Shown: positions 6,634 to 30,680 of the stretch, in pieces
How positions within the stretch are numbered: the first letter of the stretch is position 1
Layout of the letters: every line of letters begins with the position of its first letter
DNA from: an uncultured Eubacteriales bacterium
Lineage (GTDB): Bacteria; Bacillota; Clostridia; Oscillospirales; Oscillospiraceae
Direction: 5' to 3'
Assembly (NCBI GenBank): GCA_900552475.1
Contig: USAC01000001.1
Span: forward strand, 8,444 to 72,443
Length of the DNA stretch: 64,000 nucleotides
The notes under the pieces: generated by a model
What the model was told of the DNA's origin: nothing
Seen by the model: only the letters and a program-made list of their open reading frames with translations
Databases searched by the model: none
Program-made: the position numbers and the translations under genes

Positions 6634-6638
6634 CGTTA

Positions 6639-6866
6639 CAAAAGGGCGTTGCCCTTTTGTAACGAAAAGATTTCGCTCCGACCCGCTCATTTTTGTGCGC
6701 GCTGCGCACAAAAATACACTCTGGCCCGACATCAACCGTCGGGTCTGCCGAGGCCAGTTCCTCTGGGCCGAGGCCCGCGCAAAGTGCTTTTTGCGACGTA
6801 CACGCCGCCGCAAAAAACGGATTTCAAAGGATTCGCACCGCTGCGGCGGCGCGAACTCTGCGAGTT
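6639..6866 (+). repeat. Intergenic palindromic repeat element, family 1, full-length copy A
   Basis: Shares with copies B-D the modules ATTCGCTCCGA, GCGCATTTTTGTGCGC..GCGCACAAA, TTTTGCGACGTACACGCCGCCGCAAAA and GCGGC...GCCGCGAACTCTGCGAGAC. Confidence 0.75.
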
Positions 6867-7018
6867 TTTTTACAGGAATTTGCTTTTAACGGCACAATCT
6901 TCCAAAAACCGGTAGACACCCGCCTGTTTCGCGTGCTATACTGATACTATCTGTCAGTATGTGTATTCCCGGAAAACCGGGAAGCGTTTGAGAGAGATCT
7001 ATCAGATGGGGTGATACG

Positions 7019-9421
7019 ATGAAATCCAGAAAACGGGCCTATTCCATCGCGCTGTGCTGCCTTCTGGCGGTCACGGTGCTGCTGCCGGGCCTGGTGTTCC
7101 TGTTTGCCGGGGCGACGGCGGCGGACGATCAGGAGGAATCCCTGCTCGGCACGCTCAGCGCCCAGTTCGAGGCGAGCAGCCCGGGCATGGTTTCGTCCGG
7201 GACGGGCGACCTCGGCGGAAAGTCCTACGGCGCCTATCAGTTTGCCAGCCGCTATGACACGCCCAAGGCGTTTTTCGAGTGGTGCCTGCAGCAGGACGAT
7301 ACATATTACCGCTCCGTGGGCGAGCGCCTGCAGGACGCATACTACAGCGGCGGTGCGGGCTACGGCACGAATTTCGACAACACGTGGCGCGCGCTCAACA
7401 ACGAGGACAGCGCGGGCTTTCTGCGCGTCCAGCGCAACTATGTCCGCCTGAGCTACTATGAGCCGATCGTCGCGAAACTGGAGGCAAACGTCCCCGGCTT
7501 CTCCGCGGACGATTACAGCATCGCCCTGCGCAACGTCCTCTGGTCGCGCGCGGCGCAGCACGGGACGGGCGGGGCCTACAGCGTTGTCACGCGCGCCTTC
7601 GCGGCGCTGGGCGGCTTTAAAAACCAGCCCGAGGCCGAGCTGATCGACGCGATTTACGCCGAGAGCGGCCGCCTGACGACGGACGCCGCCACCACCATGA
7701 GCGGCACGACCGCCGAGCGCTACGGCGTCAGCGGAAAGGCACTGGCGTACTACACGGGCTGCTCGGGCGAGGTGCAGCTCGGCGTCTACCTGCGCCTGCG
7801 CGTCAACGAGCCCGCCAAGGCGCAGGCCATGCTCGCGCAGTACGGCTATGCCGATGCCGTCATCGACGAGGGTGTCTACCGCATCCAGCCCTCCTCCAAC
7901 ACGAACCTCAGCGCCGTCGCGGGCAGTACATCCGTCTCGCTCAACGGCGTGGCCGACAGCGATGCCCAGCGCTTCCAGCTGACGTATTACGCGAGCGGCT
8001 ACTATGCCATCACCTGCCGCGACAGCGGCCTGCGGCTCGCAGCTGCGAGTGACGGCAGTGTCACGATGGAAAAGCCCGCCGCGTCAGAGAGCCAGATGTG
8101 GCGCCTCGCGTGCTATAACAGCGGCTTCTCCATCCAGAACCGCGCCACGGGGCAGTATCTCGCGGCTTCGAGCTATGCCGCGGGCGGCAGGCTCCAGACC
8201 GCGCAGAGTGCCTACCAGTGGCAGGTCGCGCTCGCCGCGGGCGGCTGGTCGCTCGCCGGCGCGAGCTACCCGACCTATGCCAGCGGCCTGACCGAGGGTG
8301 CGTCGTCCTACCCCTTCCGCGGGACGCTGCGCTGCTCGTACCCCATCTCCCGCGTGGAGGTCAGAATCCTGAACGCTGCGGGCGGCGACGCCATCACCCC
8401 GGCCACCGCTTCCCCCGGCAGCAAGAGCTTCGATCTCTCGAGCCTTGACAACTCCGTCGCCTTCAGCCGTCTGCGCGCGGGCGGCTATACCCTCGTCATC
8501 ACCGCCGAGAGCGGCGCACCGACCGACGGCACGTTCCGTTTGGAGTCTCCCTTCTACGTCTCCGGCGACGGCTTCACTGTCACGTTCGATCCCTGCGGCG
8601 GTACCTGCGGCGAGGCCAAGCGCGCCGTCTATGCCGGTCAGTGCTACGGCGACCTTCCCACCGCGGCGAAGGACGGCTGGACATTTGACGGCTGGTATAC
8701 CGCGCCCGAGGGCGGCAGCCGCATCGACGGGGCGGACATCGTCACTGCCGGTGACCACACGCTCTACGCGCACTATTCCCGCGAATACAGCTATGTGTTC
8801 TATAACTACGACGGCACCGCCGTCTCCTCCGGCCGCCTGGCCGCCGGGGAGGAGATCCCCGCACCAGACCAGACCCCGTCCCGCCCGTCCGACGGCACGT
8901 ATTACTATGTCTTCACCGGCTGGAGCGGCTACAGCGCGGGCATGACCATCTCCGACAACGTCTCCTTCACCGCGGCGTATGAGGCGCACGAGATCGTCGG
9001 CGAGCCGGATCAGATCATCACCTCGGCCTATGTCATCCGCGACGGCTGGCTGCGCCGCATCCCGCTCGGCACCACGACGGCGGAGGTGCAGAGCGGGCTC
9101 ACGCCCTCCTCCGGCATCACCATCCACAAGGGCAGCGCCCCGGCCACCGGCCTTGCCGGAACGGGCATGACCGTGGAGTATACGCGCGGGGGCGAGGTCG
9201 TGCAGACCTTGACGATGGTTGTCACGGGCGACCTCAACGGCGACGGCCGCTTGGATATCAGCGATGTCGTGCAGCTGCAGGGCAGTCTGCTCAACCGCGT
9301 GACACTCAGCGACGCCGCAGCACAGGCGGCGGACGTCAACGGCGACGGCCGCATCGATATCAGCGACATGGTACAGATGACCGCCGCGCTGCTCGGGCGC
9401 AGCAGCGTCAAACCCAACTGA
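7019..9421 (+). CDS. Secreted multidomain protein: N-terminal lysozyme/SLT-like domain (weak), ricin-B lectin domain, two Listeria-Bacteroides repeats, C-terminal type-I dockerin
   Basis: Signal peptide. QxW motifs (AQRFQL, SQMWRL, YQWQV). DGWTFDGWYT-type repeats. Dockerin duplicated motif DLNGDGRLDISDVV...DVNGDGRIDISDMV. Confidence 0.8.
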   Translation: MKSRKRAYSIALCCLLAVTVLLPGLVFLFAGATAADDQEESLLGTLSAQFEASSPGMVSSGTGDLGGKSYGAYQFASRYDTPKAFFEWCLQQDDTYYRSVGERLQDAYYSGGAGYGTNFDNTWRALNNEDSAGFLRVQRNYVRLSYYEPIVAKLEANVPGFSADDYSIALRNVLWSRAAQHGTGGAYSVVTRAFAALGGFKNQPEAELIDAIYAESGRLTTDAATTMSGTTAERYGVSGKALAYYTGCSGEVQLGVYLRLRVNEPAKAQAMLAQYGYADAVIDEGVYRIQPSSNTNLSAVAGSTSVSLNGVADSDAQRFQLTYYASGYYAITCRDSGLRLAAASDGSVTMEKPAASESQMWRLACYNSGFSIQNRATGQYLAASSYAAGGRLQTAQSAYQWQVALAAGGWSLAGASYPTYASGLTEGASSYPFRGTLRCSYPISRVEVRILNAAGGDAITPATASPGSKSFDLSSLDNSVAFSRLRAGGYTLVITAESGAPTDGTFRLESPFYVSGDGFTVTFDPCGGTCGEAKRAVYAGQCYGDLPTAAKDGWTFDGWYTAPEGGSRIDGADIVTAGDHTLYAHYSREYSYVFYNYDGTAVSSGRLAAGEEIPAPDQTPSRPSDGTYYYVFTGWSGYSAGMTISDNVSFTAAYEAHEIVGEPDQIITSAYVIRDGWLRRIPLGTTTAEVQSGLTPSSGITIHKGSAPATGLAGTGMTVEYTRGGEVVQTLTMVVTGDLNGDGRLDISDVVQLQGSLLNRVTLSDAAAQAADVNGDGRIDISDMVQMTAALLGRSSVKPN

Positions 9422-9439
9422 CGAGAAAGCAGGTACCCC

Positions 9440-11059
9440 ATGAAATTTTGGAAAAAGCAGATTTTCTCCCTGCTCGCAGCGCTCGCGGTGCTCCTGACCC
9501 TCGTGCCGCAGCGGGCTGAGGCCGCAAGCTGCGGCCTCAGCGGTGCAGGCAGCGTGCGCGCGGGCAATACCGTCACTGTGACGTTCAGCATCAGCGGCGG
9601 CGATATTCTCGGCTTCGAGGCCGACCTCTCCTATGACAGCAGCCAGCTCAGTCTGGAGGGATCAAAGTCCCTCCTCGGCAGCAGCTGGACGGTCAAGATG
9701 AACGGCAGCCGCATCGTCGGCTATGACAGCGAGCAGAGCAATCCCATCAACGGCTCAAAGCAGGTGATGGCCTTCACCTTCCGCGTCAAGAGCGGCGCTT
9801 CCGCAGGGAGCAGCCTTTCTGCCGCGGTGAGTGGCGTCTCCGTCTCCTATATCCGCAGCAGCGACGGCAACGCCGTGACCGTTGACGCAGGCTCCGCCCG
9901 CTGGAGCGCGTCAGTCTCCGCCCCGCTGTCCGCCAACGCGAACCTCGCGGCCCTTTCCTGCGCCAACGCAGAGCTCTCCCCGACGTTTTCCGCCGGGACG
10001 ACGCAGTACAGCGTGACCGTACCCTATGATGTGACGAGTCTGCGCCTGTCCGCTTCGGCGGAGGACGGCGGCGCGAAGGTCTCCACCTCCGGCAACGACC
10101 TCTCCGTCGGGGCGAACACCGTGACCATCACCGTCACCGCGCCGAGCGGCGCCGTGAAGCGCTATACCATCTCCGTCATCCGCCAGCCGGACCCGAACTA
10201 CACCGCATCGACCGACGCGGCGCTCTCCGCGCTCACCGCGAGCTATGGGGAGATCAGCCCGGCCTTCACCTCGGACGTGACGGACTATGTCCTCTACGTC
10301 CCCCATGAGACCGAGCACATCACCCTCAGCGGCACCGCCCGCGACGGGAAGGCCGTGCAGGTCACCGGCGCGGACGCCGCGCTCGACGAGGGCGAAAATG
10401 TCCTCACCGTCACCTGCACCGCCGAGGACGGCGTGACCGTCATGACCTACACGGTGCATGTCTGGCGCATGCCCGCCTACGCCGGGACGCTGCCGCAGAT
10501 CATCGTCCCGACGGACACCGTCGAACCCGACCAGCCCGCGCAGGAGGATGCCTCGGCGCTCTCCGCGCTGTGGGCGAGCCTGTGCGCACCGTTTGTGCTG
10601 CCGTTTGGCGGCTGGACGGTGCCGCTCTATGCCGTGGCCGCGGCGGCGATGGTGCTGCTTCTGCTGCTCCTGTTCCTGCTGGGGCACCTGATCGGGCGCA
10701 GGCGCGGCCGCCGCAAGGCCCTGCACCAGCTGGAGCAGACGCCCGATGCCATCGGCGTCATCCCGCCCGCGGACGAGCCGTCTGCGTCCGACGAGACGCA
10801 CCCTGACGAGCCGCAGCCGGAGGACGGGCCGCAGCCCGTCGAAGAGGAGCCGTCCGCGGAGAACGAGCCGGTCCCGCAGCCGGTAGAAGCGGCACCGACG
10901 GAAGCGTCCGCCGCGCAGGAGGAGCCTGCGGCGGAAGAGCCGTCCGTTCAGCCGGAGCAGACGGAGGAGATGCCCGCGGAACCGTCCCCCGATGACACGC
11001 TAGCGGATCTCGGCGACATCTCGCTGGATGATCTGCTGAACGATATTCGGAATATGTGA
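9440..11059 (+). CDS. Membrane-anchored cohesin-domain protein with two cadherin-like beta-sandwich domains, a TM segment and an acidic Pro-rich cytoplasmic tail
   Basis: Signal peptide. Cohesin-like segment VTVTFSISGGDILGFEADLSYDSSQLSL. Repeated ANLAALS...YSVTVPY...RYTISV modules. Long hydrophobic stretch followed by RRRGRRK. Confidence 0.7.
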   Translation: MKFWKKQIFSLLAALAVLLTLVPQRAEAASCGLSGAGSVRAGNTVTVTFSISGGDILGFEADLSYDSSQLSLEGSKSLLGSSWTVKMNGSRIVGYDSEQSNPINGSKQVMAFTFRVKSGASAGSSLSAAVSGVSVSYIRSSDGNAVTVDAGSARWSASVSAPLSANANLAALSCANAELSPTFSAGTTQYSVTVPYDVTSLRLSASAEDGGAKVSTSGNDLSVGANTVTITVTAPSGAVKRYTISVIRQPDPNYTASTDAALSALTASYGEISPAFTSDVTDYVLYVPHETEHITLSGTARDGKAVQVTGADAALDEGENVLTVTCTAEDGVTVMTYTVHVWRMPAYAGTLPQIIVPTDTVEPDQPAQEDASALSALWASLCAPFVLPFGGWTVPLYAVAAAAMVLLLLLLFLLGHLIGRRRGRRKALHQLEQTPDAIGVIPPADEPSASDETHPDEPQPEDGPQPVEEEPSAENEPVPQPVEAAPTEASAAQEEPAAEEPSVQPEQTEEMPAEPSPDDTLADLGDISLDDLLNDIRNM

Positions 11060-11061
11060 GC

Positions 11062-11102
11062 CATGAGCGCCGGAGACAGTGTCTCCGGCGCTCATTTTGT
11101 TT
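11062..11102 (+). terminator. Rho-independent terminator
   Basis: gccatgagcgccggagacagtgtctccggcgctcattttgtttt. Confidence 0.7.
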
Positions 11103-11115
11103 TGGGGGCGGGGAT

Positions 11116-11193
11116 GCCTTCGGCGAGATACTTTTTACCAGCAGCGGCAAAAAGTACCCCGTCGGAGACATGGACCAACCGATTCAACCACCA
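11116..11193 (+). repeat. Intergenic repeat family 2, copy a
   Basis: Hairpin ggtacTTTTTaccagcagcggcAAAAAgtacc followed by ccgtcggagacatggaccaaccgattcaaccacc. Homologous copies at 16693, 19588 and 19835. Confidence 0.65.
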
Positions 11194-11248
11194 CTCCCCC
11201 GCCAAACGCAAAAGCAGACCGGAGAGGGTTTCTCCGGTCTGCCGTATG

Positions 11249-12277
11249 TCACCACTTATTCTCCACCTTCTCCGCAAACCCGAGGAAATCCTTCACCCGC
11301 ACCGCTGTGCCGTCGTCGAGAACCGCCGTCCCCGTGAAGCGGCCGAACACCTGATGCTGGTCGGACTTGATCAGCTTCACATCCGTGCAGGCGGCGCGGT
11401 CGAGAATCGGCACGAAGTCCATCTCAAACCGCCCGTCGTCCGACGTGAACGTCCACGGGCGGAGATAGTCCTCGCGCCCGTCCCGCATGGGGATGTGGAA
11501 CTGCACCTGACTGAGCTTGTGCGCCCGGCCACCGTAGAATAGCATGTTCTCGCTCGCAGTGGAGGTGTTGCCGAAGCCATAGCCGATGTTCCAGCCGAAC
11601 GGGATACCGTCCACCTGCCCGGAGGCGCTGCCCCAGTACCAGGTGTTGTGATACGTCCAGACGCCGCGCCCCCAGTCGAGCACGCCGAAGGAGTCCGCCG
11701 GGTCGAAAACGTACTCCCGCCCACTGACGAGCACCGAGCCGCTCGCGCGCATACAGTTGATTTTTTGGTTATAGTAGAAGTGCCCCGGCTTTTCAAACGG
11801 CGTGCAGATGACCATCGACTCCTCCGGCTCGTCCGTCAGGCGGATGCGCCCGGAGACGGGGAGCCCGTCCAGAAAGTCCTCCATGTGGAACGTCAGCACA
11901 CGCGCGCCCTCCTCGTGGCGGAAGGAGAGGGCGTAGTGCTTCCGGTTGATGACCGTGTCGCCCGCGGCAGACGAGGCGGGCAGCCCTGTGCGCCCCGTGG
12001 GGAAGGCGCGCATGGGACTTTTCGTCTTTTCCCAGCGCTCGTCGAAGTGCAGAAACGAGATGGAGTCGAGCCCCATGTACCCGTTGTCGTCGATCGTCAG
12101 GGCGACAGCGTAGTGGTCGTTCGCGACGAGGTAGTAGTCCCACTCCTTGATGCGCGCGGCCCCGGCGCGGATGGCGGCGCGGTCATAGACCGGCAGGAGC
12201 CGCTTGGCGTAGCCCGCCTCGCGGAGATTGCCCGCCGCGTCGAGCAGCGGCGCGCGGCTGGTGATTTCATGCTGCAT
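11249..12277 (-). CDS. DUF2804 domain protein
   Basis: KEWDYY motif and overall architecture. GGGAGGG RBS. Confidence 0.75.
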   Translation of the reverse strand: MQHEITSRAPLLDAAGNLREAGYAKRLLPVYDRAAIRAGAARIKEWDYYLVANDHYAVALTIDDNGYMGLDSISFLHFDERWEKTKSPMRAFPTGRTGLPASSAAGDTVINRKHYALSFRHEEGARVLTFHMEDFLDGLPVSGRIRLTDEPEESMVICTPFEKPGHFYYNQKINCMRASGSVLVSGREYVFDPADSFGVLDWGRGVWTYHNTWYWGSASGQVDGIPFGWNIGYGFGNTSTASENMLFYGGRAHKLSQVQFHIPMRDGREDYLRPWTFTSDDGRFEMDFVPILDRAACTDVKLIKSDQHQVFGRFTGTAVLDDGTAVRVKDFLGFAEKVENKW

Positions 12278-12345
12278 GGTGCGTCCCTCCCGATGTGATT
12301 TGCCTTTATTTTACCACATACGGCGGCACCGGGCTATCTTTTTGC

Positions 12346-12400
12346 TTGACAAATTCCGAAAATCAGCTATAATCTGAAAATGAATTTCAATTTCAAATTC
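12346..12400 (+). promoter_or_regulatory. zur-znu promoter (TTGACA-16-TATAAT) with overlapping candidate Zur operator GAATTTCAATTTCAAATTC
   Basis: Perfect hexamers. An imperfect AT-rich 19-bp palindrome at 12382..12400 lies between the -10 and the RBS. Confidence 0.55.
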
Positions 12401-12415
12401 GGAGGAGTGACATCC

Positions 12416-12817
12416 ATGACCTATATGACGCGCCAGCAGCAGGCGGTGCTCGCCTGCATCGAGCGCTTCGGCGGCGGCTGCGCGACGGCGGCGGAGCTGA
12501 CGGAGGAGCTGCACCGGGAGGGGCAGTCCATTGGCCTGACCACGGTGTACCGCCAGCTCGAAAAGCTCAGCCGCCAGGGGCTTGTCCACAAGCTCGTGAC
12601 GGATGAGGGCGCCTGCTACCAGTACTGCAGCCACGCGGACAAGAACGCGTGCTTCCTGCTCAAGTGCGAGGGCTGCGGGGCGATTTTCCACATGGACTGC
12701 GGCCATCTCTCGCAGCTCTATGACCACCTGCTCACAGAGCACGGCTTTGCCATCAACCCGCGCCGCACGCTGTTTTACGGCCTTTGCGCCAAGTGCCGGG
12801 AGGCGCAGCAGTCATGA
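12416..12817 (+). CDS. zur: Fur-family transcriptional regulator, probably Zur
   Basis: Fur-like winged helix followed by CxxC...CxxC motifs. Sits immediately upstream of znuACB. Confidence 0.8.
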   Translation: MTYMTRQQQAVLACIERFGGGCATAAELTEELHREGQSIGLTTVYRQLEKLSRQGLVHKLVTDEGACYQYCSHADKNACFLLKCEGCGAIFHMDCGHLSQLYDHLLTEHGFAINPRRTLFYGLCAKCREAQQS

Positions 12818-15307: not shown

Positions 15308-15334
15308 CGCGGCCATATCGAAAAGAAACTGCAA

Positions 15335-16675: not shown

Positions 16676-16692
16676 GGCGAGTAGCACCACGA

Positions 16693-22540: not shown

Positions 22541-22598
22541 AATAAGACGGACAACTGCCCCTTCTGCTTCGGCGGGAGGGGCAGTTGCTGTTAAAAAA

Positions 22599-22733
22599 GT
22601 CTCACAGAGTTCGCGGCTCGCAAGCCGCGAATCAATTGAAATCCGTTTTTTGCGGCGCGTGTACGTCGCAAAAAATACTTTGCGAGGGTCGGAGCGAATT
22701 CCACTTCTCAAAAAAGGCAAGCCTTTTTGACAA
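22599..22733 (-). repeat. Repeat family 1, copy D (reverse orientation)
   Basis: Reverse complement aligns with copies A-C. Its terminal hairpin doubles as the terminator of the gene ending at 22734. Confidence 0.75.
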
Positions 22734-23972
22734 TCAGTAAGTCCAGTCCGCGGAAGAATTAGAGCCGGGGGTGGCGGAGACGGTGCTGCTGTCGGCGTAT
22801 TTCCACTGCTTCATCCATTCGTCATAGCAGACGGCGTCGCCGGGGCAGACGCATTCGCGGCCATAGACGTCCGTTACGACGAGGGCGAGGGTGTAGATAT
22901 GCCCCGCCTCAAGCGTGACGGCGCGCGGCGTACGGAAAAAGCTGCTGTCCCTCGCGTCGGTGTTTGCGTCGGTGTTCGGATCCAGCCACATCACCAGCTT
23001 CTGATCCCGGAACAGACCCATGCGCAGCTGCGCGGGCTCCGAGGGCGTGAGACTGTCCTCGTCGATCCAGCGGGTGATGCTGAACTGCTCGCCTTTGCGG
23101 AGCAGGCTGTTCATTGTGTCGATGGCGAACAGGAGCGGGGTATCATACAGATCATAGCGCGGGAAGCTCGCGCTGTAGAGCCCGGTGTACTGCCCGATGA
23201 GCTGATACTGGCGCGTGTCGCCCTGCACGAAGGCGGCGAGAATGCTGATCTCGTCGTCCGTCAGCGGGCAGGTGACGGACGCCGTATAGCACTGGTTCTC
23301 ACCGAGCGTCCCCTCGGCGGAGACGATCTCCTCGCCGCAGTCGACGGTGAAAACGGCGGTCATGCCGTCGACGTAGGTCTTCGGCGCGGCGCTGAGCGAG
23401 AACGTCACCGTCCCGGCGGCATAGTCGACGGATGCGATGTCCGTGCTCTCGGAGAGTGTGATGTTCACCTGCTGCTCGAGCAGTGAGCGCACCTGATCGG
23501 AGATGGTGCCGATCTGGCTGCCGACACTGTAATTGACGTTATTGAGCGCCTGCTGCAGGTTCTGATAGTCCTGCCGGACGGAACGCAGCTGCCCGAACAG
23601 ATACAGCAGCAGCGCGCACGCGAGCACGCAGCCGAGGACGGCTGGCCAGCGGCGGCGCTTCGGCTGCGCCGCCTGATAGCGCCGCGCCAGCTCCTCCACC
23701 ATCCGCAGCTGCGCCTCGGTCAGCTCACCTTCATCGTCCGCGGGAGCGCCCGCATCGGCGCCCTCCGGGGCGTCTGTCTCCTCGCCGAGGAGCCAGCCCA
23801 CCGAGACGGAGAACTGGCGGCTCAGCGTCACCAGCTTTTCGATCTCCGGCAGCGCCGCGTCCGACTCCCATTTATAGATCGCCTGCCGCGAGACGCCCAG
23901 CTGCGCGCCCAGTTGTTCCTGTGAAAGGCCCAGCGCCTTCCTCCTCTGCGCGATTCGTTGTCCGATGGTCAT
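22734..23972 (-). CDS. Membrane-anchored XRE-family transcriptional regulator with large extracytoplasmic C-terminal domain
   Basis: N-terminal HTH_XRE (GLSQEQLGAQLGVSRQAIYKWE), a single TM helix, then a ~290-aa extracellular domain. AAGGAG RBS. Confidence 0.75.
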   Translation of the reverse strand: MTIGQRIAQRRKALGLSQEQLGAQLGVSRQAIYKWESDAALPEIEKLVTLSRQFSVSVGWLLGEETDAPEGADAGAPADDEGELTEAQLRMVEELARRYQAAQPKRRRWPAVLGCVLACALLLYLFGQLRSVRQDYQNLQQALNNVNYSVGSQIGTISDQVRSLLEQQVNITLSESTDIASVDYAAGTVTFSLSAAPKTYVDGMTAVFTVDCGEEIVSAEGTLGENQCYTASVTCPLTDDEISILAAFVQGDTRQYQLIGQYTGLYSASFPRYDLYDTPLLFAIDTMNSLLRKGEQFSITRWIDEDSLTPSEPAQLRMGLFRDQKLVMWLDPNTDANTDARDSSFFRTPRAVTLEAGHIYTLALVVTDVYGRECVCPGDAVCYDEWMKQWKYADSSTVSATPGSNSSADWTY

Positions 23973-24066
23973 ATGCCCGGCTCCTTTCTCTCTTGTTGGC
24001 CCCACGATACCACGGCGGGGCCGCAAACGCCACCAACCGGGGGATGGAAATCCGTCAACCGGCGGT

Positions 24067-24795
24067 TTACATCGCGCTTTCCGGGAGGGGGAGCGTGCGC
24101 AGCAGCGCGCGGCCGAAGCACGTTGGGCCGGAAACGCTGCCCGTGGGGAACGTGAGCACCTCGCCCGCGGTGCGGTTCAGAGGGAGAAGCCGCACCGCGC
24201 CGCCTTCGCCCCGGGTATACTGCCGCACGAGCATCGCGCCGCCGATGCAGAAGAGCCCCACGTCGCCGTTCGCGAGCGGGGCGTGATGGATGTAGATGAC
24301 GGAGCCGCTTGGAATATACGGCGCCATGGAGTCCCCCTCCATGCGCACGGCCAGCTCCGCGGCGGGCGGCACGTCGCCGGTGACGGTGAGGAGTTCATAG
24401 TCGAGACCGGGAACCGGCGCGGCCGCACCCGCCGCCGCGGGCGAGCGGTAGAGCGGGATGGTGCGCGCGGGCTCGCCCTGCATACGGCACAGCGCGTCGA
24501 GGAGCGTGTGGATGGTCTGCCGCCCGGCGGGGCTGAGGGCGCGGTACTTTTCCACGAGGGTGCGCTCCTCCGGCGACGCGTCGCCGCCCGCGCTCTCGAA
24601 GCTGCCGCGGTAGAGATAGTTTGGCTCGACGTGCAGCGCGTCGATAATCCGGAGGAGAATCTCCTCCTTCGGCGCGCTGACGCCCGTCTCATAGTTGCCG
24701 ACGGCGGACTGCGACACCCCCAGCTGCTTTGCCAGCTCCGATCTGGACAGGCCAAGCTCCTTCCGCCTGCACTTGAGCTGTTCGCCAAAACTCAT
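24067..24795 (-). CDS. LexA/phage-cI-like repressor (XRE HTH plus S24 peptidase domain)
   Basis: HTH (LGLSRSELAKQLGVSQSAVGNYE) and an S24 catalytic region (GDSM...). AGGGAGG RBS. Confidence 0.8.
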   Translation of the reverse strand: MSFGEQLKCRRKELGLSRSELAKQLGVSQSAVGNYETGVSAPKEEILLRIIDALHVEPNYLYRGSFESAGGDASPEERTLVEKYRALSPAGRQTIHTLLDALCRMQGEPARTIPLYRSPAAAGAAAPVPGLDYELLTVTGDVPPAAELAVRMEGDSMAPYIPSGSVIYIHHAPLANGDVGLFCIGGAMLVRQYTRGEGGAVRLLPLNRTAGEVLTFPTGSVSGPTCFGRALLRTLPLPESAM

Positions 24796-24846
24796 GCCGC
24801 ATCCTCCCTTCGACAAGCTCCGACTGATTCCACCTGATGCTACCAC

Positions 24847-24960
24847 AATTCTTGTGATATGTCAAATCAAAATAACAAGTTTCTTGTTAAAATGGGCTTG
24901 ACATACAAGTTTTCTTGTGATATTGTAACTTCAATCACAAGATTCTTGTTATACAAAGAA
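24847..24960. promoter_or_regulatory. Operator cluster: four copies of the palindrome ACAAGnnnCTTGT upstream of the LexA-like repressor
   Basis: attcttgtgat; acaagtttcttgtt; acaagttttcttgtg; acaagattcttgtt. Low-GC stretch. Confidence 0.55.
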
Positions 24961-25065
24961 CATATCCATAAGAATCCAGAGATATACCAAATAGAAAAAA
25001 CAGCCGCCCGCGGGCGGCTGCGCAGCCCCGCTTGGCGGGGTCTTCGGAAGGGATATTGCGGCGGG

Positions 25066-25593
25066 TCAGACGCGCTTTTCCATGCAGACAAGCTGCACAT
25101 CGGGGATGCCGTTGAACTTGCCCGGTACGATGTCCACCTCACGATAGCCGAGGCGGGCGTACAGGCGGCGCGCGGAGACGTTGCGCGCGTTCGTGTCGAT
25201 CCGGAGCCAGGTGCAGCCGTGCTCGCGGGCGTATTGTTCGTAGAAGGCGACGAACTCCGTGCCGCAGCCGTGCCCCGCGACGAGCGGGTCGGACACGAGC
25301 GTGTGCAGCACGAGCACCTGCTCATCCGGCGTCTCCGGCTCCGTCCACGGGACGGCGGCGTACTGCGGGCACTGCTCATGGTTGATGCGTCCGGCCACGA
25401 CGACGCGGCCCTCGCGCTCCATGACGAACAGCTCCCCCGCCTCCAGCGCGGCACGCGCCGTGTCGGCGGTCGGATAGACGCCGCGGATCCAGCCGGTGCT
25501 GGCCCCGCCGCGCTCCTCGCGGTCGAGAATGCGGTCGTAGATCACCGCGATGGCCGCGATGTCGCGCGGCTCGCCCTTGCGGATGGTATGCAT
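25066..25593 (-). CDS. GNAT-family N-acetyltransferase
   Basis: Acetyl-CoA-binding motif region (RGHGCGTEFV). AGGAGGG RBS. Confidence 0.8.
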   Translation of the reverse strand: MHTIRKGEPRDIAAIAVIYDRILDREERGGASTGWIRGVYPTADTARAALEAGELFVMEREGRVVVAGRINHEQCPQYAAVPWTEPETPDEQVLVLHTLVSDPLVAGHGCGTEFVAFYEQYAREHGCTWLRIDTNARNVSARRLYARLGYREVDIVPGKFNGIPDVQLVCMEKRV

Positions 25594-25778
25594 AGAATCA
25601 CCCTCCTATTATTTATATAGAAATCGACAAATAGAGAAAGAAAAAATACCAACTGCTTTTCAGGCAATTGGTATTTTTTGGTGGGGGATGGTGGATTTAC
25701 CCTAACGGGCATAAACCTCGAATCCACGCCCCCACAGCAAAAAAATACCAACTGCCCGTGTGGGCAATCGGTATTTTT

Positions 25779-25863
25779 TGGTGGGGGATGGTGGATTCGA
25801 ACCACCGAAGGCAGCGCCAGCAGATTTACAGTCTGTCCCCTTTGGCCACTCGGGAAATCCCCC
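25779..25863 (-). tRNA. tRNA-Tyr (anticodon GTA), class II with long variable arm
   Basis: Anticodon loop CUGUAAA. GGTTCGAATCC T-loop. CCA encoded. Confidence 0.85.
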
Positions 25864-25875
25864 ATAATATATCAT

Positions 25876-25951
25876 TGGAGCTGGTGGACGGATTCGAACC
25901 CCCGACCTGCTGATTACAAATCAGCTGCTCTACCAGCTGAGCTACACCAGC
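25876..25951 (-). tRNA. tRNA-Thr (anticodon TGT)
   Basis: Anticodon loop UUUGUAA. GGTTCGAATCC T-loop. CCA encoded. Confidence 0.85.
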
Positions 25952-26062
25952 ATTTTTGATCCAGCAGAACACATGATAGCAGATGTCTCCCGGTTTGTCA
26001 ACCGTTATTTCGCGCTTTAAGTCGATTTTTTTGAAATTTTTATACGGAGAGGATGGATCAAC

Positions 26063-26296
26063 ATGACCCTGAAGGAGCTTTCGCCGCTGTATCTGGAGTC
26101 CGCCCGCCTGATTTCGGAGCGGATGTCGCTGCTGCGGCGGCAGAGACGGGAGACGGATGACCCGCAGGAGCGGTTCCGGCTGGAGCGGCGGCTTCTGGAG
26201 CTGCGCCCGATGCTGACGCAGATGAACCAGCTGGCCGAGCTGACCGCGCGCTATTATGAGAGGGGGTATGACCGTAATGGGCACTACACGCTATGA
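26063..26296 (+). CDS. Small hypothetical helical protein
   Basis: 77-aa ORF overlapping the start of the next gene. No family assignment. Confidence 0.35.
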   Translation: MTLKELSPLYLESARLISERMSLLRRQRRETDDPQERFRLERRLLELRPMLTQMNQLAELTARYYERGYDRNGHYTL

Positions 26297-26564
26297 CCCG
26301 CTGGACCGGGCGAGCCTGCAGCTGTGGATGGAGGGGCGGAACGACGACAACCACCTCCAGCTCGAGCGGCTGCTGCGCAACCTCCCGCTCGCCGTGGAGC
26401 AGGAGCTGACGCCGCGCCAGCGCCAAATTCTCCGCATGCGCTATTCGTCCGGCATGAGAAACGTCGAGATCGCGCGGGCGCTGGGGGTGAACAAATCGAC
26501 CGTCACGCGCACGCTCAACCGCGCCGTAGAGCGTCTTTTCCGCACGCTTCGCTACAGTCTATGA
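26277..26564 (+). CDS. Small sigma-70 region-4-like HTH protein
   Basis: LTPRQRQILRMRY...NVEIARALGVNKSTVTRTLNRA is region-4-like. Start uncertain (26256 or 26277). Confidence 0.5.
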   Translation: MGTTRYDPLDRASLQLWMEGRNDDNHLQLERLLRNLPLAVEQELTPRQRQILRMRYSSGMRNVEIARALGVNKSTVTRTLNRAVERLFRTLRYSL

Positions 26565-26684
26565 ACTTTTTCCGTAAATTTTACAAAAACCCTTGACTTT
26601 TCCGCCAGAGAACATATAATGCGAGTGCTATTAAACGCAGAATGGATGATTTTGGTGGTATAATCGAAAGGAGAAGGGCGTTTT

Positions 26685-27566
26685 ATGTACGATAGAGTGC
26701 TGCATAACCGCTGGAGCAAGCTGGCCACGGCCGTGGCCGGGGCGGTGCTGATGGCGGTGGCGATCAACCTGTTCATCGTGCCGCAGGGGCTCTATACCGG
26801 CGGCCTGCTCGGATTGTGTCAGGTGATCCGAACGCTGCTGGTGACGAAGCTCGGCGTCACGGCGAATTTCGACATTGCGGGCCTGATCTATCTTGCGAGC
26901 AACGTGCCGCTGCTGCTTCTGGCATATAAGACGCTCGGGCGGACGTTCGTCCTGCGGCTGACGATCTGCACGGTGGTGAACTCGCTGTCGATGTCGATCA
27001 TCCCGGTTCCGGCGCAGCCAATCATTCCGGATCTGCTGACGAGCTGCATGGTCGGCGGTATCCTCGTGGGCTTTTCAAGCGGCCTGATGCTCACCTGCGG
27101 CGGCTCGAGCGGCGGCATGGACATTCTCGGGCTGTACCTCTCGAAAAAGGGCACGGGCTTCACGGTGGGAAAGTTCTCCCTCCTCTTCAACGCCATGCTC
27201 TATACGCTCTGCCTGCTCCTTTTCAACGCGCAGACCGCGATTTACTCCGCGATCTACACGGTGTTCAGCTCCCTGTTCGTCGACCGCGTGCATCAGCAGA
27301 ATATCACCGTGCAGGTCACGATCATGACCAAGGTGATGGACATCAAGCCGTTTCAGGCGATTCTGCACCGGCTCGACCGCGGCCTGACCCGCTGGACGGG
27401 ACAGGGCGCCTACACGGGCGAGCCGGTGCAGGTGCTGTGCATCTGCGTGTCGAAGTACGAGCTGGAGACGCTGCAGCAGGAGGTCAATAAGATCGACCCC
27501 GCCGCGTTCTTCATCGTGCAGGAGGGCGTCCGCACGGGCGGGAATTTCAAGGCGCATCTATCGTAA
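26685..27566 (+). CDS. YitT-family membrane protein (DUF161/DUF2179)
   Basis: Characteristic N-terminal polytopic region and C-terminal DUF2179-like domain. AAGGAGAAGGG RBS. Confidence 0.75.
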   Translation: MYDRVLHNRWSKLATAVAGAVLMAVAINLFIVPQGLYTGGLLGLCQVIRTLLVTKLGVTANFDIAGLIYLASNVPLLLLAYKTLGRTFVLRLTICTVVNSLSMSIIPVPAQPIIPDLLTSCMVGGILVGFSSGLMLTCGGSSGGMDILGLYLSKKGTGFTVGKFSLLFNAMLYTLCLLLFNAQTAIYSAIYTVFSSLFVDRVHQQNITVQVTIMTKVMDIKPFQAILHRLDRGLTRWTGQGAYTGEPVQVLCICVSKYELETLQQEVNKIDPAAFFIVQEGVRTGGNFKAHLS

Positions 27567-27568
27567 CT

Positions 27569-27726
27569 TTGTCAAAAAAGGCCGACGGCCTTTTTTGGCA
27601 AAGGGGATTCGCTCCGAACCGCGCATTTTTGCGTGCTGCGCGCAAAGTGTATTTTGCGACGTACACGCCGCCGCAAAATACGGATTTGACTTTATTCGCG
27701 CCGGGCGCGGCGCGCACTCTGCGAGA
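27569..27726 (+). repeat. Repeat family 1, copy B
   Basis: Starts with the hairpin TTGTCAAAAAAGGCCGACGGCCTTTTTTGG and ends with GCGCGCACTCTGCGAGAC. Confidence 0.75.
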
Positions 27727-27769
27727 CATGGGAAAGCCCCTCCGGCCGTGGGCCGGAGGGGCTTTCCTT

Positions 27770-28918
27770 TTATGAGAGGTCGAAGTCAGCGTCCTTCAGG
27801 CCGACGCCTTCGACGAGGCCGCTGTCGATCAGGCGCAGGAGCGCGGCGGGCGAGGCGGTGACGTAGGCACCGTCGAAGGTCATGCCCACGTCCTGCAGCC
27901 CCTTGAGCAGGTAGCTGTAGGATTTGGTTTGGTACGCCGCCGCGTCGGGGTCGATCCAGTCGACGATTTTCTGGTGATCCGCCATATACTGCAGCCGGCT
28001 CTCGAGAGACTGACGCAGATTCTCCGCCGTGAGCGGCTGCTGATAGAGGTCGAGCATGGGATATGCGTCATTGTAGTCCGTCAGGTTTGCGCCGCCCGGC
28101 GAGACGGTCAGAAAGAGGTCGCCGCCGGAGAGGTAGGTGTTGACGCGGATGTTTTCAAACGTCAAGTCCTCATCTTGCCAGTCGGCGAGCAGCTGTGCCA
28201 GTGTCTCGAACGTCAGATCCTCCGCAAAGTGGATGCTGGCATAGACCTTCACGCCGCTTGGCAGCGCGGCGAGCGTCTCCCGCCGCAGCGCCAGCGTCTC
28301 CCGCTGCCGCGCCTGCAGCTCCTCCTCGGAGAGGTGCGCCGTATATTCGCTGAAATCCCCGATGAGTCGATAGCCCGCCGCCTGCAGGCGCGCGACATCG
28401 CCCTCCAGCCCGTGCAGAATGCCGAGCGTCACCCTGCCGCTGACGGAAAAGCTCCCGTCCTTATCCCAGAACAGAAACGTCAGCTTTTCCGTCCCGAATC
28501 CGCTGCTTTCGGCGTACACACCGGAAAAGTTCGCGCGCGGGATGCGCAGTGCGGTGAACACCTGCATCGTCGCGGGCAGGTTGGCCGGATCCCCGGCCTT
28601 GAGCGTGTCACTCCAGTCGACCTTCACCGCGCGGCGGTTGATGGCCGGGAAGAGCACCAGCTGCGCCAGCACGCCCAGCGCCAGCACTGCGGCGAGCACC
28701 CCGACCGCGACGCGCGCCGTGCGGCGGCGCACCTGACGGCGCGCGCGGCGCAGCTCCTCCTGCAGCCGCTGCGCATCCGGCGGCGGGAGCGGCGGGCGCT
28801 CCTCCTCGATATAGGCCTCCAGCAGGCGGAACTTCTCCAGCTCCGCCTCGACCTGCGAGATCTCCTCGCCGTCGGCCGTTCCGCTCCGATAGCGGCTCCA
28901 CAGGGTTTCAAAGTCCAT
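27770..28918 (-). CDS. Putative anti-sigma factor (single-TM membrane protein)
   Basis: Overlaps the sigma gene stop. N-terminal cytoplasmic segment, a TM helix, and a ~280-aa extracytoplasmic domain. Confidence 0.6.
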   Translation of the reverse strand: MDFETLWSRYRSGTADGEEISQVEAELEKFRLLEAYIEEERPPLPPPDAQRLQEELRRARRQVRRRTARVAVGVLAAVLALGVLAQLVLFPAINRRAVKVDWSDTLKAGDPANLPATMQVFTALRIPRANFSGVYAESSGFGTEKLTFLFWDKDGSFSVSGRVTLGILHGLEGDVARLQAAGYRLIGDFSEYTAHLSEEELQARQRETLALRRETLAALPSGVKVYASIHFAEDLTFETLAQLLADWQDEDLTFENIRVNTYLSGGDLFLTVSPGGANLTDYNDAYPMLDLYQQPLTAENLRQSLESRLQYMADHQKIVDWIDPDAAAYQTKSYSYLLKGLQDVGMTFDGAYVTASPAALLRLIDSGLVEGVGLKDADFDLS

Positions 28919-29402
28919 AGCCGTCCTCCTCCATCTCCCGGCGCAGATGCCGGCGCGCCCGGTACAGGCGCGTTTTTGCCGCGCCGGGGGTCATGCCCGT
29001 CAGCTGCGCAATCTCACTGAGCGGCCGCCGCGCGAAGTAAAACAGGTTCAAAAGCTCCTGTTCGTCCTCCGAAAGGCGCGCAATGGCGCGGTAGAGCGCG
29101 ATCAGCTCCTCGCGCTGCAGCAGCCGCTCCTCCGGCGTCGGCGCACTGTCGGCCCGCTCCGGGGGATCCCCGTCCGCATGGCGGCGGCGTTTGCGCCGGT
29201 GGTCGCAGAGAAGGTTCCGGCACACGCGCATCAGCCAGTACGGAAACGAGGGGACATCCTCCGGCAGGGAGAGATACGCGCGGACGAACGCCTCCTGCAC
29301 CAGATCCTCGGCCAGATGCCGGTCGCGGCACAGAGCGAGCAGATAGAACAGCGCGGGCTGATAATACCGCTCGTAGAGCTGCGCCAGCACGTCTCTGTCC
29401 AC
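28908..29402 (-). CDS. ECF-type RNA polymerase sigma factor
   Basis: Regions 2 and 4 (DLVQEAFVRAY..., LSEIAQLTGMTPGAAKTRLYRAR). GTG start with a GAGGAGGGG RBS. Confidence 0.85.
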   Translation of the reverse strand: MDRDVLAQLYERYYQPALFYLLALCRDRHLAEDLVQEAFVRAYLSLPEDVPSFPYWLMRVCRNLLCDHRRKRRRHADGDPPERADSAPTPEERLLQREELIALYRAIARLSEDEQELLNLFYFARRPLSEIAQLTGMTPGAAKTRLYRARRHLRREMEEDGYGL

Positions 29403-29504
29403 GCCATCCCCTCCTCTCTGTCTCTATAACGAACGAACCGGTAAAAGGTTACAGAAAAAGCCGCCATGCGGGAAAAATTTCCTGTATGGCGGCTTTCTGG
29501 ATGC

Positions 29505-30437
29505 TCAGAGCGCGGCGGCACCGATGATCCCGGCGTCGTTTCCGAGCTGCGCGGCGGCGACGACGGGGATGGCCCCCTCGCGCTGGCCGAAGCAGTGCGT
29601 GGCGATGTATTCACGGATGGGCGCGAGCAGGCGCTCACCCTGGCGGCTGACGCCACCGCCGAGGAGGATCATCTCCGGGGCGAGGGCGTTGACGATGTCG
29701 GTCATGCCCGCGGCGATGTATTCGCAGTAGCGGTCGATGACGCGCTGCGCGGCGGCGTCGCCCCGGTCGGCGGCGTCGAAGACGGTGCGCCCGTTGATCT
29801 GCTCGGCGGGAACCTGCGCAAGGAGCGACTGCGGATTCTGCACGGCGGCCTCGCGCGTCTGGCGGATGAGCGCCGTGGCGGAGGCGTAGGCCTCCCAGCA
29901 GCCGCGGCGGCCGCAGGTACAGGGTTCGCCGTCCAGCACGAGCACCGTGTGCCCAAGCTCCGCGCCCGCGCCGCGCATCCCGGCGTAGATCTTTCCACCG
30001 ATGATGATGCCGCCGCCCACGCCCGTGCCGAGCGTGATGAGCACGACGTCGCGCCGCCCGGCGGCGGCCCCGGCGACGACCTCGGCCAGCGCGGCGCAGT
30101 TGGCGTCGTTTCCGAGGTGCGCGGGCAGACCGAAGTGCTCCGTGAGCATCCGGCAGACGGGGACGTCTTTCCATCCGAGGTTATACGCCCGCGCCACAAC
30201 GCCCGTCTCCGGGTCGCAGGTACCGGGCGAGCCGATGCCGATGGACGCGCAGTCAGCCGCCGTCAGCCCGGCGCGGCGGAGCGCCTCCTCCACGGCGGCG
30301 CACATATCCGCGATGACAGCCTGCGCCGGGCGCTCTGCCCCGGTGGGGACGCTGCAGCGGGCGATGATCTCGTGCCGCTCATTCACGGCCCCGACGGCGA
30401 TATTCGTCCCGCCGAGGTCAATTCCGATCCGAATCAT
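29505..30437 (-). CDS. glcK: ROK-family glucokinase
   Basis: DLGGTNIAVG ATP motif and a CxCGxxGC zinc motif. Confidence 0.85.
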   Translation of the reverse strand: MIRIGIDLGGTNIAVGAVNERHEIIARCSVPTGAERPAQAVIADMCAAVEEALRRAGLTAADCASIGIGSPGTCDPETGVVARAYNLGWKDVPVCRMLTEHFGLPAHLGNDANCAALAEVVAGAAAGRRDVVLITLGTGVGGGIIIGGKIYAGMRGAGAELGHTVLVLDGEPCTCGRRGCWEAYASATALIRQTREAAVQNPQSLLAQVPAEQINGRTVFDAADRGDAAAQRVIDRYCEYIAAGMTDIVNALAPEMILLGGGVSRQGERLLAPIREYIATHCFGQREGAIPVVAAAQLGNDAGIIGAAAL

Positions 30438-30503
30438 GGTTGATCTCTATCCTTTCAAATAGTCAACAAAGGACTGCATTCCCGTCCCTGCTCATCCCCA
30501 AAA

Positions 30504-30680
30504 GTCTCACAGAGTTCGCGGCGCCGCAGCGCCGCGATTAAAGTCAGATCGTTTTTTTTGCGGCGTGTACGTCGCAAAAAACTCTTTGCGCGGAGAGAGT
30601 GTATTTTTGTGTGCTGCGCACACAAAAATGCGCGGTTCGGAGCGATACCCCTTGTCCCAAAAGGCCACCGGTCTTTTGGG
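30504..30680 (-). repeat. Repeat family 1, copy C (reverse orientation)
   Basis: Reverse complement aligns nearly base-for-base with copy B. Confidence 0.75.

Follow-up and report, generated by a model that had tools for sequence, protein, structure and literature searches.

The bcr1-type repeats of the Bacillus cereus group belong to the small dispersed repeats of Firmicutes. Group IIC introns, which are ribozymes of 700 nt or more, usually with an RT ORF, are inserted immediately after intrinsic terminators, oriented like the gene upstream, and produce no target duplication. In E. coli and Pseudomonas, the REP/BIME–RAYT systems form mosaics of palindromic units at gene 3' ends, possibly acting as terminators or mRNA stabilisers and serving as recombination substrates. 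The pneumococcal BOX, RUP and SPRITE elements are further small dispersed repeats of Firmicutes (PMC3049150). Finally, terminator hairpins are the targets of IS1272 and TnSha1 (IS1182 family), which show no sequence specificity and insert in both orientations (PMC4923244, PMC5678879), with a doubling of the entire stem-loop drawn as an alternative outcome in Fig. 13 of PMC5678879.

The analysis of a 64-kb stretch of DNA (hereafter the window, meaning the whole stretch that was analysed) confirmed the four copies and two tail fragments of an intergenic repeat, family 1, that the initial annotation had reported, all at the positions given there. Family 1 is quite probably a MITE, that is, a non-autonomous, non-coding transposable element. 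It resembles the BOX, RUP, SPRITE and bcr1-type repeats in being shorter than 300 bp, non-coding and intergenic, with a predicted tight fold, over-representation behind genes and between convergent genes, and slow turnover within species. Like BOX (modules A-B-C, optional or multiple) it is modular, and like SPRITE it has a terminator-like hairpin close to CDS 3' ends. However, its sequence is unrelated to these repeats, its host is an Oscillospiraceae of about 60% GC, and its 5' end is a palindrome of two inverted-repeat copies. Its duplications comprise whole terminator hairpins of 13-40 bp, whereas 2-9 bp or none were detected in those repeats, and its bias towards the orientation of the upstream gene is about 90%, compared with a leading-strand bias of about 60% reported for BOX, RUP and SPRITE (PMC3049150).

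Family 1 copies span 135-245 bp and do not keep a reading frame, with indels of 1-2 nt, larger indels and swapped modules. The 5' inverted repeat (IRL), approximately (C/G)AG(A/C)(C/T)TGTC(A/C)AAAAAG, is folded back on its own inverted copy as hairpin H0. The body follows in the order 5' arm, variable hairpin H1, optional 64-bp module, H2 (a T6-stem-loop-A6 hairpin), linker, H3 (with a loop that is usually UGCG) and tail AACTCTGCGAGGC, and the 3' end is a third copy of the inverted repeat. The terminal inverted repeats (TIRs) of well-preserved copies approximate GAGACTGTCAAAAAAG. The same 15-17 nt are found inverted at both ends of many copies (loci L009, L089, L072, L074, L041, L082, L160, L162 and others); in the window copies these repeats are degenerate. 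The same ends also bound other bodies (L226/L261, of 174 bp, L201 and L130) and solo palindromes (L251, L130 and L037). The module order proposed in the initial annotation was correct, with corrections to H1 in copies B and C, the optional module, the 3' ends and the fragments. The features of family 1 in the window are the following:

6634-6878, + strand: copy A, full-length and carrying the optional 64-bp module
6635-6663, + strand: H0 of copy A
6689-6715, + strand: H1 of copy A
6716-6779, + strand: optional module of copy A
6788-6817, + strand: H2 of copy A
6832-6855, + strand: H3 of copy A
6854-6864, + strand: tail of copy A, AACTCTGCGAG
to ~6878, + strand: degenerate 3' inverted repeat of copy A
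22586-22733, - strand: copy B, H1 missing (internal deletion)
27567-27729, + strand: copy C, H1 truncated, 3' inverted repeat lost
30491-30689, - strand: copy D, full length, with H0 at 30654-30682
~44741-44808, + strand: first fragment, a degenerate 3' half (nhmmer E = 6e-4)
45695-45745, + strand: second fragment, a 5'-truncated copy with linker, H3, tail and 3' inverted repeat (nhmmer E = 4e-5)

The occurrence of family 1 in the window is far above chance. Relative to dinucleotide shuffles, the core TTTGCGACGTACACGCCGC with up to three mismatches matched four times (0.03 expected), the tail GCGCGAACTCTGCGAGAC six times (0.22 expected) and the 5' arm three times (0.05 expected). No additional copy was detected within the 64 kb by nhmmer and BLAST with about 100 related copies as queries. 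The elements run some 10-15 nt past the 3' ends first assigned to them, into the degenerate inverted copy of the 5' end. The loss of H1 in copy B and its truncation in copy C are both deletions between short direct repeats. The insert of about 65 bp noticed in copy A is indeed present but is no accident; it is a recurrent optional module in many unrelated copies (also in L044, L054, L069, L079, L110, L128, L156, L166 and L175).

All six copies and fragments are intergenic, as had been claimed. Copies A, B and C begin 1-3 nt past the stop codon of a co-oriented gene: copy B starts 1 nt past the TGA stop (22736-22734) of an HTH-domain gene (22734-24026, - strand), a locus also found in another sample (L065), and copy C starts 1 nt past the TAA stop of a YitT-family gene (26685-27566, + strand) and is followed by a separate bidirectional host terminator at 27732-27769. 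Copy D is located between the genes of a GFO/IDH/MocA oxidoreductase (30721-31749, - strand) and a ROK glucokinase (29505-30437, - strand), and it follows a separate host hairpin lying upstream at 30691-30719. The second fragment directly follows the TGA stop of the ORF 44834-45694. The first is well preserved only in its last 19 nt, GGCGCGAACTCTGTGAGAC (44790-44808), and the homology of contig L047 to the window starts within its tail, at 44788.

In about 90% of family 1 copies the H0 end lies against the stop codon of a co-oriented upstream gene, and copies are enriched between convergent genes (29 of the 72 for which both neighbours could be called). H0 consists of an A-run, a GC stem of 4-5 bp and a T-run, placed directly after the stop codon in copies A, B and C. 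Judged from this make-up, it is a plausible terminator of the preceding gene; a simple consensus terminator scan did not flag it.

Copies are dispersed across many Oscillospiraceae genomes, and the refuting condition named in the initial annotation, a lack of further copies pointing to a local duplication, is therefore clearly contradicted. The exact 20-mer core was found at 23 loci in species-representative genomes, nearly all of them Oscillospiraceae or Clostridia, including at least eight in Brotocaccenecus cirricatena and several at contig ends. Family 1 is also present in more than 120 metagenome contigs among the matches listed. Moreover, the 861-kb replicon (chromid) of Vescimonas fastidiosa harbours it in at least 40 places, five of them in one 50-kb stretch.

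The better-preserved relatives carry the marks of insertion. In ten independent cases, the element is flanked on both sides by an exact direct duplication, 13-40 bp long, of the terminator hairpin belonging to the host. These duplications abut the inverted repeats and differ in sequence at each locus, each being a stem-loop (a host terminator) behind a gene. They measure 36 bp in L020, 34 bp in L106, 30 bp in L018, 28 bp in L162, 26 bp in L009, about 40 bp with one mismatch in L060, 19 bp in L089, 18 bp in L072 and 13 bp in L050, and about 27-29 bp in L201, where they flank a different body. In L089, L072 and L162 the T-run is found only after the second duplicate copy, so the cut falls at the stem/T-run boundary. 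A clear duplication is kept in only about 10 of some 110 distinct copies, and none could be detected at the four window copies.

Furthermore, comparison across genera or species shows that orthologous sites in relatives lack family 1. In V. fastidiosa, one copy occupies each of the spacers DUF1385-prmC (248 nt) and prmC-recA (234 nt), whose counterparts in the syntenic region of the window measure 30 and 32 nt. Conversely, the GFO-ROK spacer of the window contains copy D and is 283 nt long, compared with 21 nt in a relative whose ROK identity is 81%. Because of the TIRs, the duplications of terminator hairpins and these empty sites, family 1 is MITE-like and not a REP/BIME. Thus, one half of the initial description as "REP/BIME- or MITE-like" is upheld, the dispersal in Oscillospiraceae adding to the same evidence, whereas the other half fits neither a composite of 135-245 bp with TIRs and duplications nor the lack of a transposase domain in the approximately 50 window ORFs scanned, Y1/RAYT included. 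The cognate RAYT/IS200-like transposase whose search had been suggested was not found in these ORFs either.

It is proposed that a DDE-type transposase acting in trans would move the element, recognizing its target by structure (a DNA hairpin or cruciform) and not by sequence. This enzyme, which may be IS1182-like, would join the ends of the element to both feet of the stem. Repair would then duplicate the entire stem-loop, or the stem-loop would be lost and H0 would take its place. Such a replacement may be the reason why most copies abut a stop codon without a host terminator. The hairpin targeting of IS1272 is the nearest documented behaviour, the likeness being one of behaviour only: both IS1272/TnSha1 and family 1 target DNA stem-loops, in most cases transcription terminators, irrespective of primary sequence, and the inverted repeats of the element can form a stem-loop that replaces that of the target. 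However, IS1272 deletes the hairpin without duplication, while family 1 seems to show both outcomes. For the host, the element would chiefly be DNA of a selfish or neutral kind, although its H0 may serve as a terminator.

The search for an autonomous partner yielded no pair of long TIRs in either 1.2 Mb of loci or 1.1 Mb of viral loci, and about 2.6 Mb of DNA gave no cognate autonomous IS whose ends match. The annotation of 192 kb of V. fastidiosa includes no transposase, and tblastn with an IS1182-family DDE domain (the ISKpn6 C-terminal portion) found no match in 1.5 Mb of loci.

The window copies are old and are decaying through small deletions. Their age is indicated by degenerate ends, by the lack of a duplication and by the presence of copies C and D in each of the ten further strains of the window species that were examined; their own mobility is suggested by the sequences of their relatives. 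Among strains of this species, L032 still has a full H1 in copy C, and others have lost H2 (L026) or part of H1, which therefore indicates no constraint on the element as a unit. Copy A arose by recombination between two copies, which occupy different loci in other strains. Its 5' part (to 6744) belongs there to a copy after a DUF3592-like gene (L166) and its 3' part to a copy after a PAD_porph gene (L175), with the crossover within the shared segment 6716-6744. Recombination between copies has thus demonstrably rearranged the genome, as copy A joins loci that are separate in other strains.

Besides the fruitless search for an autonomous partner in the DNA covered, the worn ends of the window copies and the small share of copies with a clear duplication, two observations count against the MITE reading: the orientation bias of 90% is not predicted by a symmetric DDE mechanism, and the compensatory evolution of H2 and H3 exceeds the need of a purely neutral parasite. 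A joint reading, which we regard as rather unlikely, combines a transposition mode undocumented for a MITE with selection on the H2-H3 module. The transposase would sense the polarity of the intrinsic terminator, or be coupled to transcription, and would insert the element in one orientation at the stem/T-run boundary, duplicating or replacing the terminator. With it would come a terminator carried by the element itself (H0) and a conserved structured module (H2-H3); this module would be under selection, for example as RNA insulating or stabilising gene 3' ends across gut Oscillospiraceae.

It could also be argued that family 1 is primarily a structured RNA, either a 3'-UTR/terminator module or a multicopy small RNA, the MITE features being a mere means of spread (a domesticated MITE). 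The H2 and H3 stems are kept through many compensatory changes. In H2, 64 cells changed on both sides, versus 21.9 +/- 2.9 in shuffles (none of 500 shuffles reached 64), and the covariation score is 0.196, compared with at most 0.091 for slid controls. H3 exists in 98 distinct versions with a mean of 8.7 Watson-Crick pairs and has a UNCG-type loop on the gene-sense strand (UGCG in 60, UCCG in 6). The co-orientation with the upstream gene points the same way, as do element folds far more stable than those of shuffles (for copy D, -75.8 kcal/mol in sense, z -4.85, and -88.9 kcal/mol in antisense, z -6.9) and a strand asymmetry in which 64 of 78 copies have the better fold in antisense (mean -6.3 kcal/mol), versus 39 of 78 for shuffles. 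However, the strand signals are at odds, with UNCG loops in sense and G.U-type pairs in antisense. No sigma-70-like promoter was found on either strand of copies B, C and D. Rfam 15 at gathering score returned only three tRNAs in the window and no family matching the element, and in three loci with full copies it gave, at E <= 1, chance-level matches only, away from the copies. In addition, strains of one species lose whole hairpins without replacement, and the TIRs and duplications show spread by transposition. Template-switch correction can produce compensatory changes in DNA palindromes without selection. An RNA function as the essence of family 1 is therefore considered unlikely.

Much less probable is a REP/BIME-type family mobilised by a RAYT (an IS200-like Y1 transposase). 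Family 1 does share with these systems the intergenic mosaic of palindromic units at gene 3' ends, the enrichment between convergent genes and a constant unit order, as in BIMEs. However, REPs are units of 20-40 nt that depend on a Y1 transposase and have neither TIRs nor target duplications, while TIRs and long target duplications are not products of Y1/HUH transposition. Moreover, the composite unit is not a 20-40 nt palindrome, the GTAG-type head is missing, and no Y1_Tnp domain was found in the window ORFs scanned or is annotated in the 192 kb of V. fastidiosa.

Debris of a one-orientation terminator-homing element, for instance a group IIC intron or a PATE of the IS200/IS605 type, would also suit two features of family 1: its location right after terminators or stop codons, and its strong alignment with transcription. 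The homing of group IIC introns reportedly described by Robart, Seo and Zimmerly in 2007 resembles family 1 in both respects. This origin is nevertheless highly improbable: the ribozyme signature is absent from family 1, with no Rfam match to group II introns or any other ribozyme, none of the copies seen has an RT or TnpA/TnpB gene next to it, TIRs and target duplications are present, and complete elements are only about 200 bp with both ends present. Local segmental duplication or chance similarity is refuted by the hundreds of copies elsewhere, each with unrelated flanks. The only hint of local duplication had been four copies within 24 kb, with nothing else left in its favour.

Family 1 is apparently an undescribed family of a familiar kind of genomic parasite; no description was found in the searchable literature, and it is absent from Rfam. 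The duplications of whole terminators provide sequence-level evidence for strand transfer at the hairpin feet, hitherto only a hypothetical pathway for IS1272, and the strong transcription-linked orientation poses a concrete mechanistic question. If the partner transposase were found, it would represent a structure-directed, terminator-seeking insertion system, possibly of practical use. Family 1 is among the commonest intergenic repeats of abundant human-gut Oscillospiraceae (Vescimonas, Brotocaccenecus, Oscillibacter-like MAGs and the window species). Its annotation would explain many contig breaks, as several copies lie at contig ends, as well as many long intergenic regions and "conserved structured" intergenic matches in these organisms.

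Four full copies and two tail fragments of an interspersed palindromic repeat, family 1, had been placed in the window by the initial annotation. These positions are borne out, with copies that align end to end:

Copy A, 6634-6878 (+), behind a co-oriented gene for a DUF3592-like protein
Copy B, 22586-22733 (-), behind a co-oriented gene for an HTH-domain protein
Copy C, 27567-27729 (+), behind a co-oriented gene for a YitT-family membrane protein
Copy D, 30491-30689 (-), between the genes for a GFO/IDH/MocA oxidoreductase and a ROK glucokinase, downstream of a distinct host hairpin
3' fragment, 44741-44808 (+)
3' fragment, 45695-45745 (+)

All six pieces lie in intergenic DNA, as had been claimed, and copies A, B and C start 1-3 nt 3' of the stop codon of the co-oriented gene. 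The G+C content of the window is 63.6%; the core TTTGCGACGTACACGCCGC matches 4 times (0.03 expected), the tail motif 6 times (0.22 expected) and the 5' arm 3 times (0.05 expected). With about 100 related copies as seeds, profile and BLAST searches found no more copies in the window. A 286-aa ORF with no Pfam match (44834-45694) occupies the space between the two partial 3' ends. Elsewhere, a large ORF (1082-4549; 1155 aa) with a faint Chlam_PMP repeat match is duplicated internally in tandem over about 2 kb, at a spacing of 2016 bp and 73% identity.

A merely local segmental duplication is decisively excluded by the abundance of copies in other genomes and metagenomes. The exact 20-mer of the core hairpin occurs at 23 loci in species-representative genomes, nearly all from Oscillospiraceae or Clostridia, with 8 of the 23 in Brotocaccenecus cirricatena; several sit at contig ends, as expected of repeats that break assemblies. 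A pattern anchored on the 3' part retrieved at least 120 metagenome contigs, almost all true copies, and a few copies are carried by viral-classed contigs. In plasmid records, BLAST placed the family at 40 or more sites of the 861-kb Vescimonas fastidiosa replicon pMM35_01, five of them within one 50-kb stretch. This replicon carries rpoB, rpoC and recA and, given rpoB and rpoC, is chromosome-like rather than a plasmid. No published description of the family was found in the literature searched. Family 1 is a real and abundant MITE family of gut Oscillospiraceae, apparently an undescribed one.

The order of modules is constant across the family:

H0, a hairpin with a short GC stem between an A-run and a T-run
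5' arm
H1, a hairpin of wholly different sequence among subfamilies
Optional module, 64 bp, GGCCCGACATCAACCGTCGGGTCTGCCGAGGCCAGTTCCTYTGGGCCGAGGCC
H2, T6, a 6-bp stem, a 7-nt loop, the returning stem and A6
Linker between H2 and H3, A/T-rich
H3, a hairpin
Tail, AACTCTG(C/T)GAG(G/A)C, nearly invariant, followed by a T-run

The common build proposed for the window copies therefore stands in its order but not in its completeness: B has no H1 and C has a shortened one. Both losses arose by deletion between short direct repeats; the full H1 of C survives in one strain. The extra insert described for copy A is present but not peculiar to it, recurring as the 64-bp module in at least nine unrelated copies. 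Some copies, at L125, L130 and L089 (loci designated L are other genomic or metagenomic loci), carry 30 extra nt, CAACGGAAGTCCCCTTGGGGGGCGC, in the loop of H2, forming a hairpin nested in a hairpin.

In well-preserved copies the 5' end lies about 8 nt before the H0 stem and reads (C/G)AG(A/C)(C/T)TGTC(A/C)AAAAAG, and the 3' end is the reverse complement of the same 15-17 nt. On the basis of these ends, H0 consists of the left inverted repeat base-paired to its own inverted copy next to it, and a third copy constitutes the right end. Direct repeats abut the element ends in ten copies, with a sequence that differs per locus, and each of them is the host gene's own terminator hairpin.

Duplications flanking elements with family-1 ends
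L060, about 40 bp, one mismatch
L020, 36 bp, exact
L106, 34 bp, exact
L018, 30 bp, exact
L162 (V. fastidiosa), 28 bp, exact
L009, 26 bp, exact
L089, 19 bp, exact
L072, 18 bp, exact
L050, 13 bp, exact
L201 (different body), about 27-29 bp

At L089, L072 and L162, the T-run is present only after the second copy of the duplication. At L074:1-230, the flanking hairpins seem to be mutually inverted, with the loop flipped, instead of directly repeated; the left flank there comprises only 15 nt.

Empty sites were found in both directions. Window 50384-59601 is syntenic with V. fastidiosa L162:1-9950 (histidine kinase, DUF1385, prmC, recA, recX, rimO, pgsA and cysS), where the DUF1385-prmC and prmC-recA spacers measure 248 and 234 nt and hold one copy each; the window spacers measure 30 and 32 nt. 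In the opposite direction, the GFO-ROK spacer that holds copy D in the window spans 283 nt; in a relative with an 81% identical ROK protein it spans 21 nt. The description of the repeats as MITE-like is thus upheld by the terminal inverted repeats (TIRs) and target duplications seen in relatives and by the empty orthologous sites. The window copies themselves are old, as their ends are degenerate and no target duplication is detectable. Copies C and D are present in 10 of 10 other strains examined, differing only by point changes and small deletions, one of which takes out H2; for copy B, a look-up of the adjoining gene gave no recorded match for strain comparison.

The inverted repeats of family 1 also enclose unrelated bodies (174-bp elements in L226 and L261, and elements in L201 and L130) and form solo palindromes of repeat, loop and repeat (L251, L130, L037 and L150). 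Those with coordinates are:

L226:55-230 (-), short element with family-1 inverted repeats and another body
L261:2676-2850, short element with family-1 inverted repeats and another body
L130, about 7887-8050 (-), element or palindrome with family-1 inverted repeats
L251:9619-9662, solo palindrome with family-1 inverted repeats

Since the same repeats bound other bodies and occur alone, the ends are the mobility determinant and the family-1 body is one of several cargoes. Family 1, the other-body elements and the solo palindromes together make up a superfamily whose defining trait is its ends. A second dispersed repeat family, at window 44561-44711 (containing CTCTCCCTTTGGGAGAGGTGGCCGAGCGCAGCGAGGACGGAGAGGGG and CCCTCTCAGTCACCTGCGGTGACAGCTCTCCCAAGGGGAGAGCC), was also observed in L069, L009 (twice), L046, L092, L115, L150/L017 and L007; in L069 it lies 34 nt after the family-1 copy of that locus. 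The 270-bp element of L201 has a body similar to this second family, family-1 inverted repeats and a hairpin duplication.

Family 1 has a strong orientation bias and conserved internal hairpins. Orientation was called independently of ORFs, from the best open frame by GC3-GC2 within the 270 nt preceding each element: in 84 copies the upstream coding strand matches that of the element, in 9 it is the opposite one, and 10 are uncallable. In co-directional gene contexts, co-oriented copies outnumber opposite ones by 38 to 3, and an ORF-based count gives 80 of 91 copies co-oriented with the upstream gene. By the V. fastidiosa annotation of L162, three of four full copies follow a co-oriented gene, and all seven callable duplication-bearing copies are co-oriented. 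A replication-linked orientation is ruled out, since the window copies alternate +,-,+,- along with the local genes; the bias goes with transcription or with terminator polarity. It is not what symmetric cut-and-paste into a hairpin would predict.

Among the mechanisms considered, the REP/BIME reading (RAYT type) is rejected, as its defining features are lacking. The suggested search for a cognate RAYT/IS200-like transposase found no Y1 domain in about 50 window ORFs, and Pfam scans of these ORFs detected no transposase either. Best supported is a MITE mobilised in trans, by a transposase that would recognise DNA stem-loops. Its insertion signature, the duplication or replacement of a whole terminator, is unusual. 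An autonomous parent was sought as a pair of TIRs, spaced 400-6000 bp in 1.2 Mb of loci and no more than 4 kb in 1.1 Mb of viral loci; both searches returned MITE-sized elements only. Two candidates were discarded: a TIR-like site in L046 is the start of a ClC channel gene, and a 794-bp TIR "pair" in L201 is the 270-bp element plus an unrelated site. No transposase is annotated in the whole 142-kb V. fastidiosa replicon pMM35_02 or in 50 kb of the chromid, and the C-terminal domain of ISKpn6 (KPC plasmid), an IS1182-type DDE transposase, had no tblastn match in 1.5 Mb of loci.

Members of the IS1182 family have direct repeats of 0-60 bp in ISfinder, and IS1634 generates long variable duplications. 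The nearest documented behaviour to that of family 1 is found in IS1272/TnSha1 (IS1182 family), whose insertion into terminator hairpins depends on no particular sequence and deletes the hairpin; the published model depicts the entire stem-loop as duplicated if the element ends join at the 5' feet of the cruciform (PMC5678879, PMC4923244). For the targeting of palindromes by certain IS1182 members, these papers cite Siguier et al. 2015. Membership of the IS1182 lineage is not established, since no transposase was found in any DNA searched. The closest small-repeat analogues are the modular pneumococcal BOX and the terminator-like SPRITE, which lies near CDS 3' ends and is enriched between convergent genes (PMC3049150). 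A 2024 review of prokaryotic MITEs mentions neither an element whose duplications are hairpin-sized nor one from Clostridia (PMC10969869).

In a non-redundant alignment of 71 sequences, 64 cells of H2 are changed on both sides vs 21.9 +/- 2.9 in shuffles (0 of 500 reaching 64), and the covariation score is 0.196 vs no more than 0.091 in slid controls. Among the stem variants are GCGACG/CGCCGC, CCGAGG/CCCCGG, GCCACG/CGTGGC, CTGACG/CGTCAG and CCAGG/CCTGG. H3 has 98 different versions, averaging 8.7 Watson-Crick pairs, and its loop is UGCG in 60 and UCCG in 6. The fold of copy D has z = -4.85 for the sense and z = -6.9 for the antisense strand. Of 78 copies, 64 fold more stably as antisense, by a mean of 6.3 kcal/mol, vs 39 of 78 in composition-matched shuffles. 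This asymmetry comes mainly from conserved sense-strand A.C mismatches, which become G.U pairs in the antisense, as at H2 pair 44-56, where 47 sequences have A.C, 11 A-U and 11 G-C. Template switching can give palindromes apparent compensatory changes. An RNA-level function is possible but unproven, given this alternative source and structural signals that are partly inherited rather than independent and that conflict, with UNCG loops on the sense and wobble pairs on the antisense strand. A single helix between the 5' arm and the tail, closing the whole fold, is not claimed because of its mixed G.U and A.C signals and its invariant 3' side, partly fixed by the search pattern used. No sigma-70-like promoter was found on either strand of copies B, C and D, and Rfam gave no family-1 match in the window (gathering score) or in three loci (E <= 1).

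Recombination between copies has left its mark on the window. Other strains have a family-1 copy and then shikimate dehydrogenase behind the DUF3592-like gene (L166:2400-2720), and another copy and then a dockerin-protein gene behind a PAD_porph gene (L175:1540-2010). Window copy A joins the 5' part of the L166-type copy to the 3' part of the L175-type copy, the crossover falling inside a shared 29 nt (6716-6744), and is a recombinant of the two. The rearrangement with its junction in copy A sets the window strain apart from at least 17 same-species assemblies. A second strain-level breakpoint (window 44788 / L047:9224) lies within a tail fragment: contig L047 is 99% identical to window 44788-45924 and unrelated upstream. 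In this window family 1 is mostly decaying selfish DNA, with copies that may donate terminators. Given the copy A junction and the L047 breakpoint, its repeats serve as substrates for homologous recombination, rearranging these genomes.
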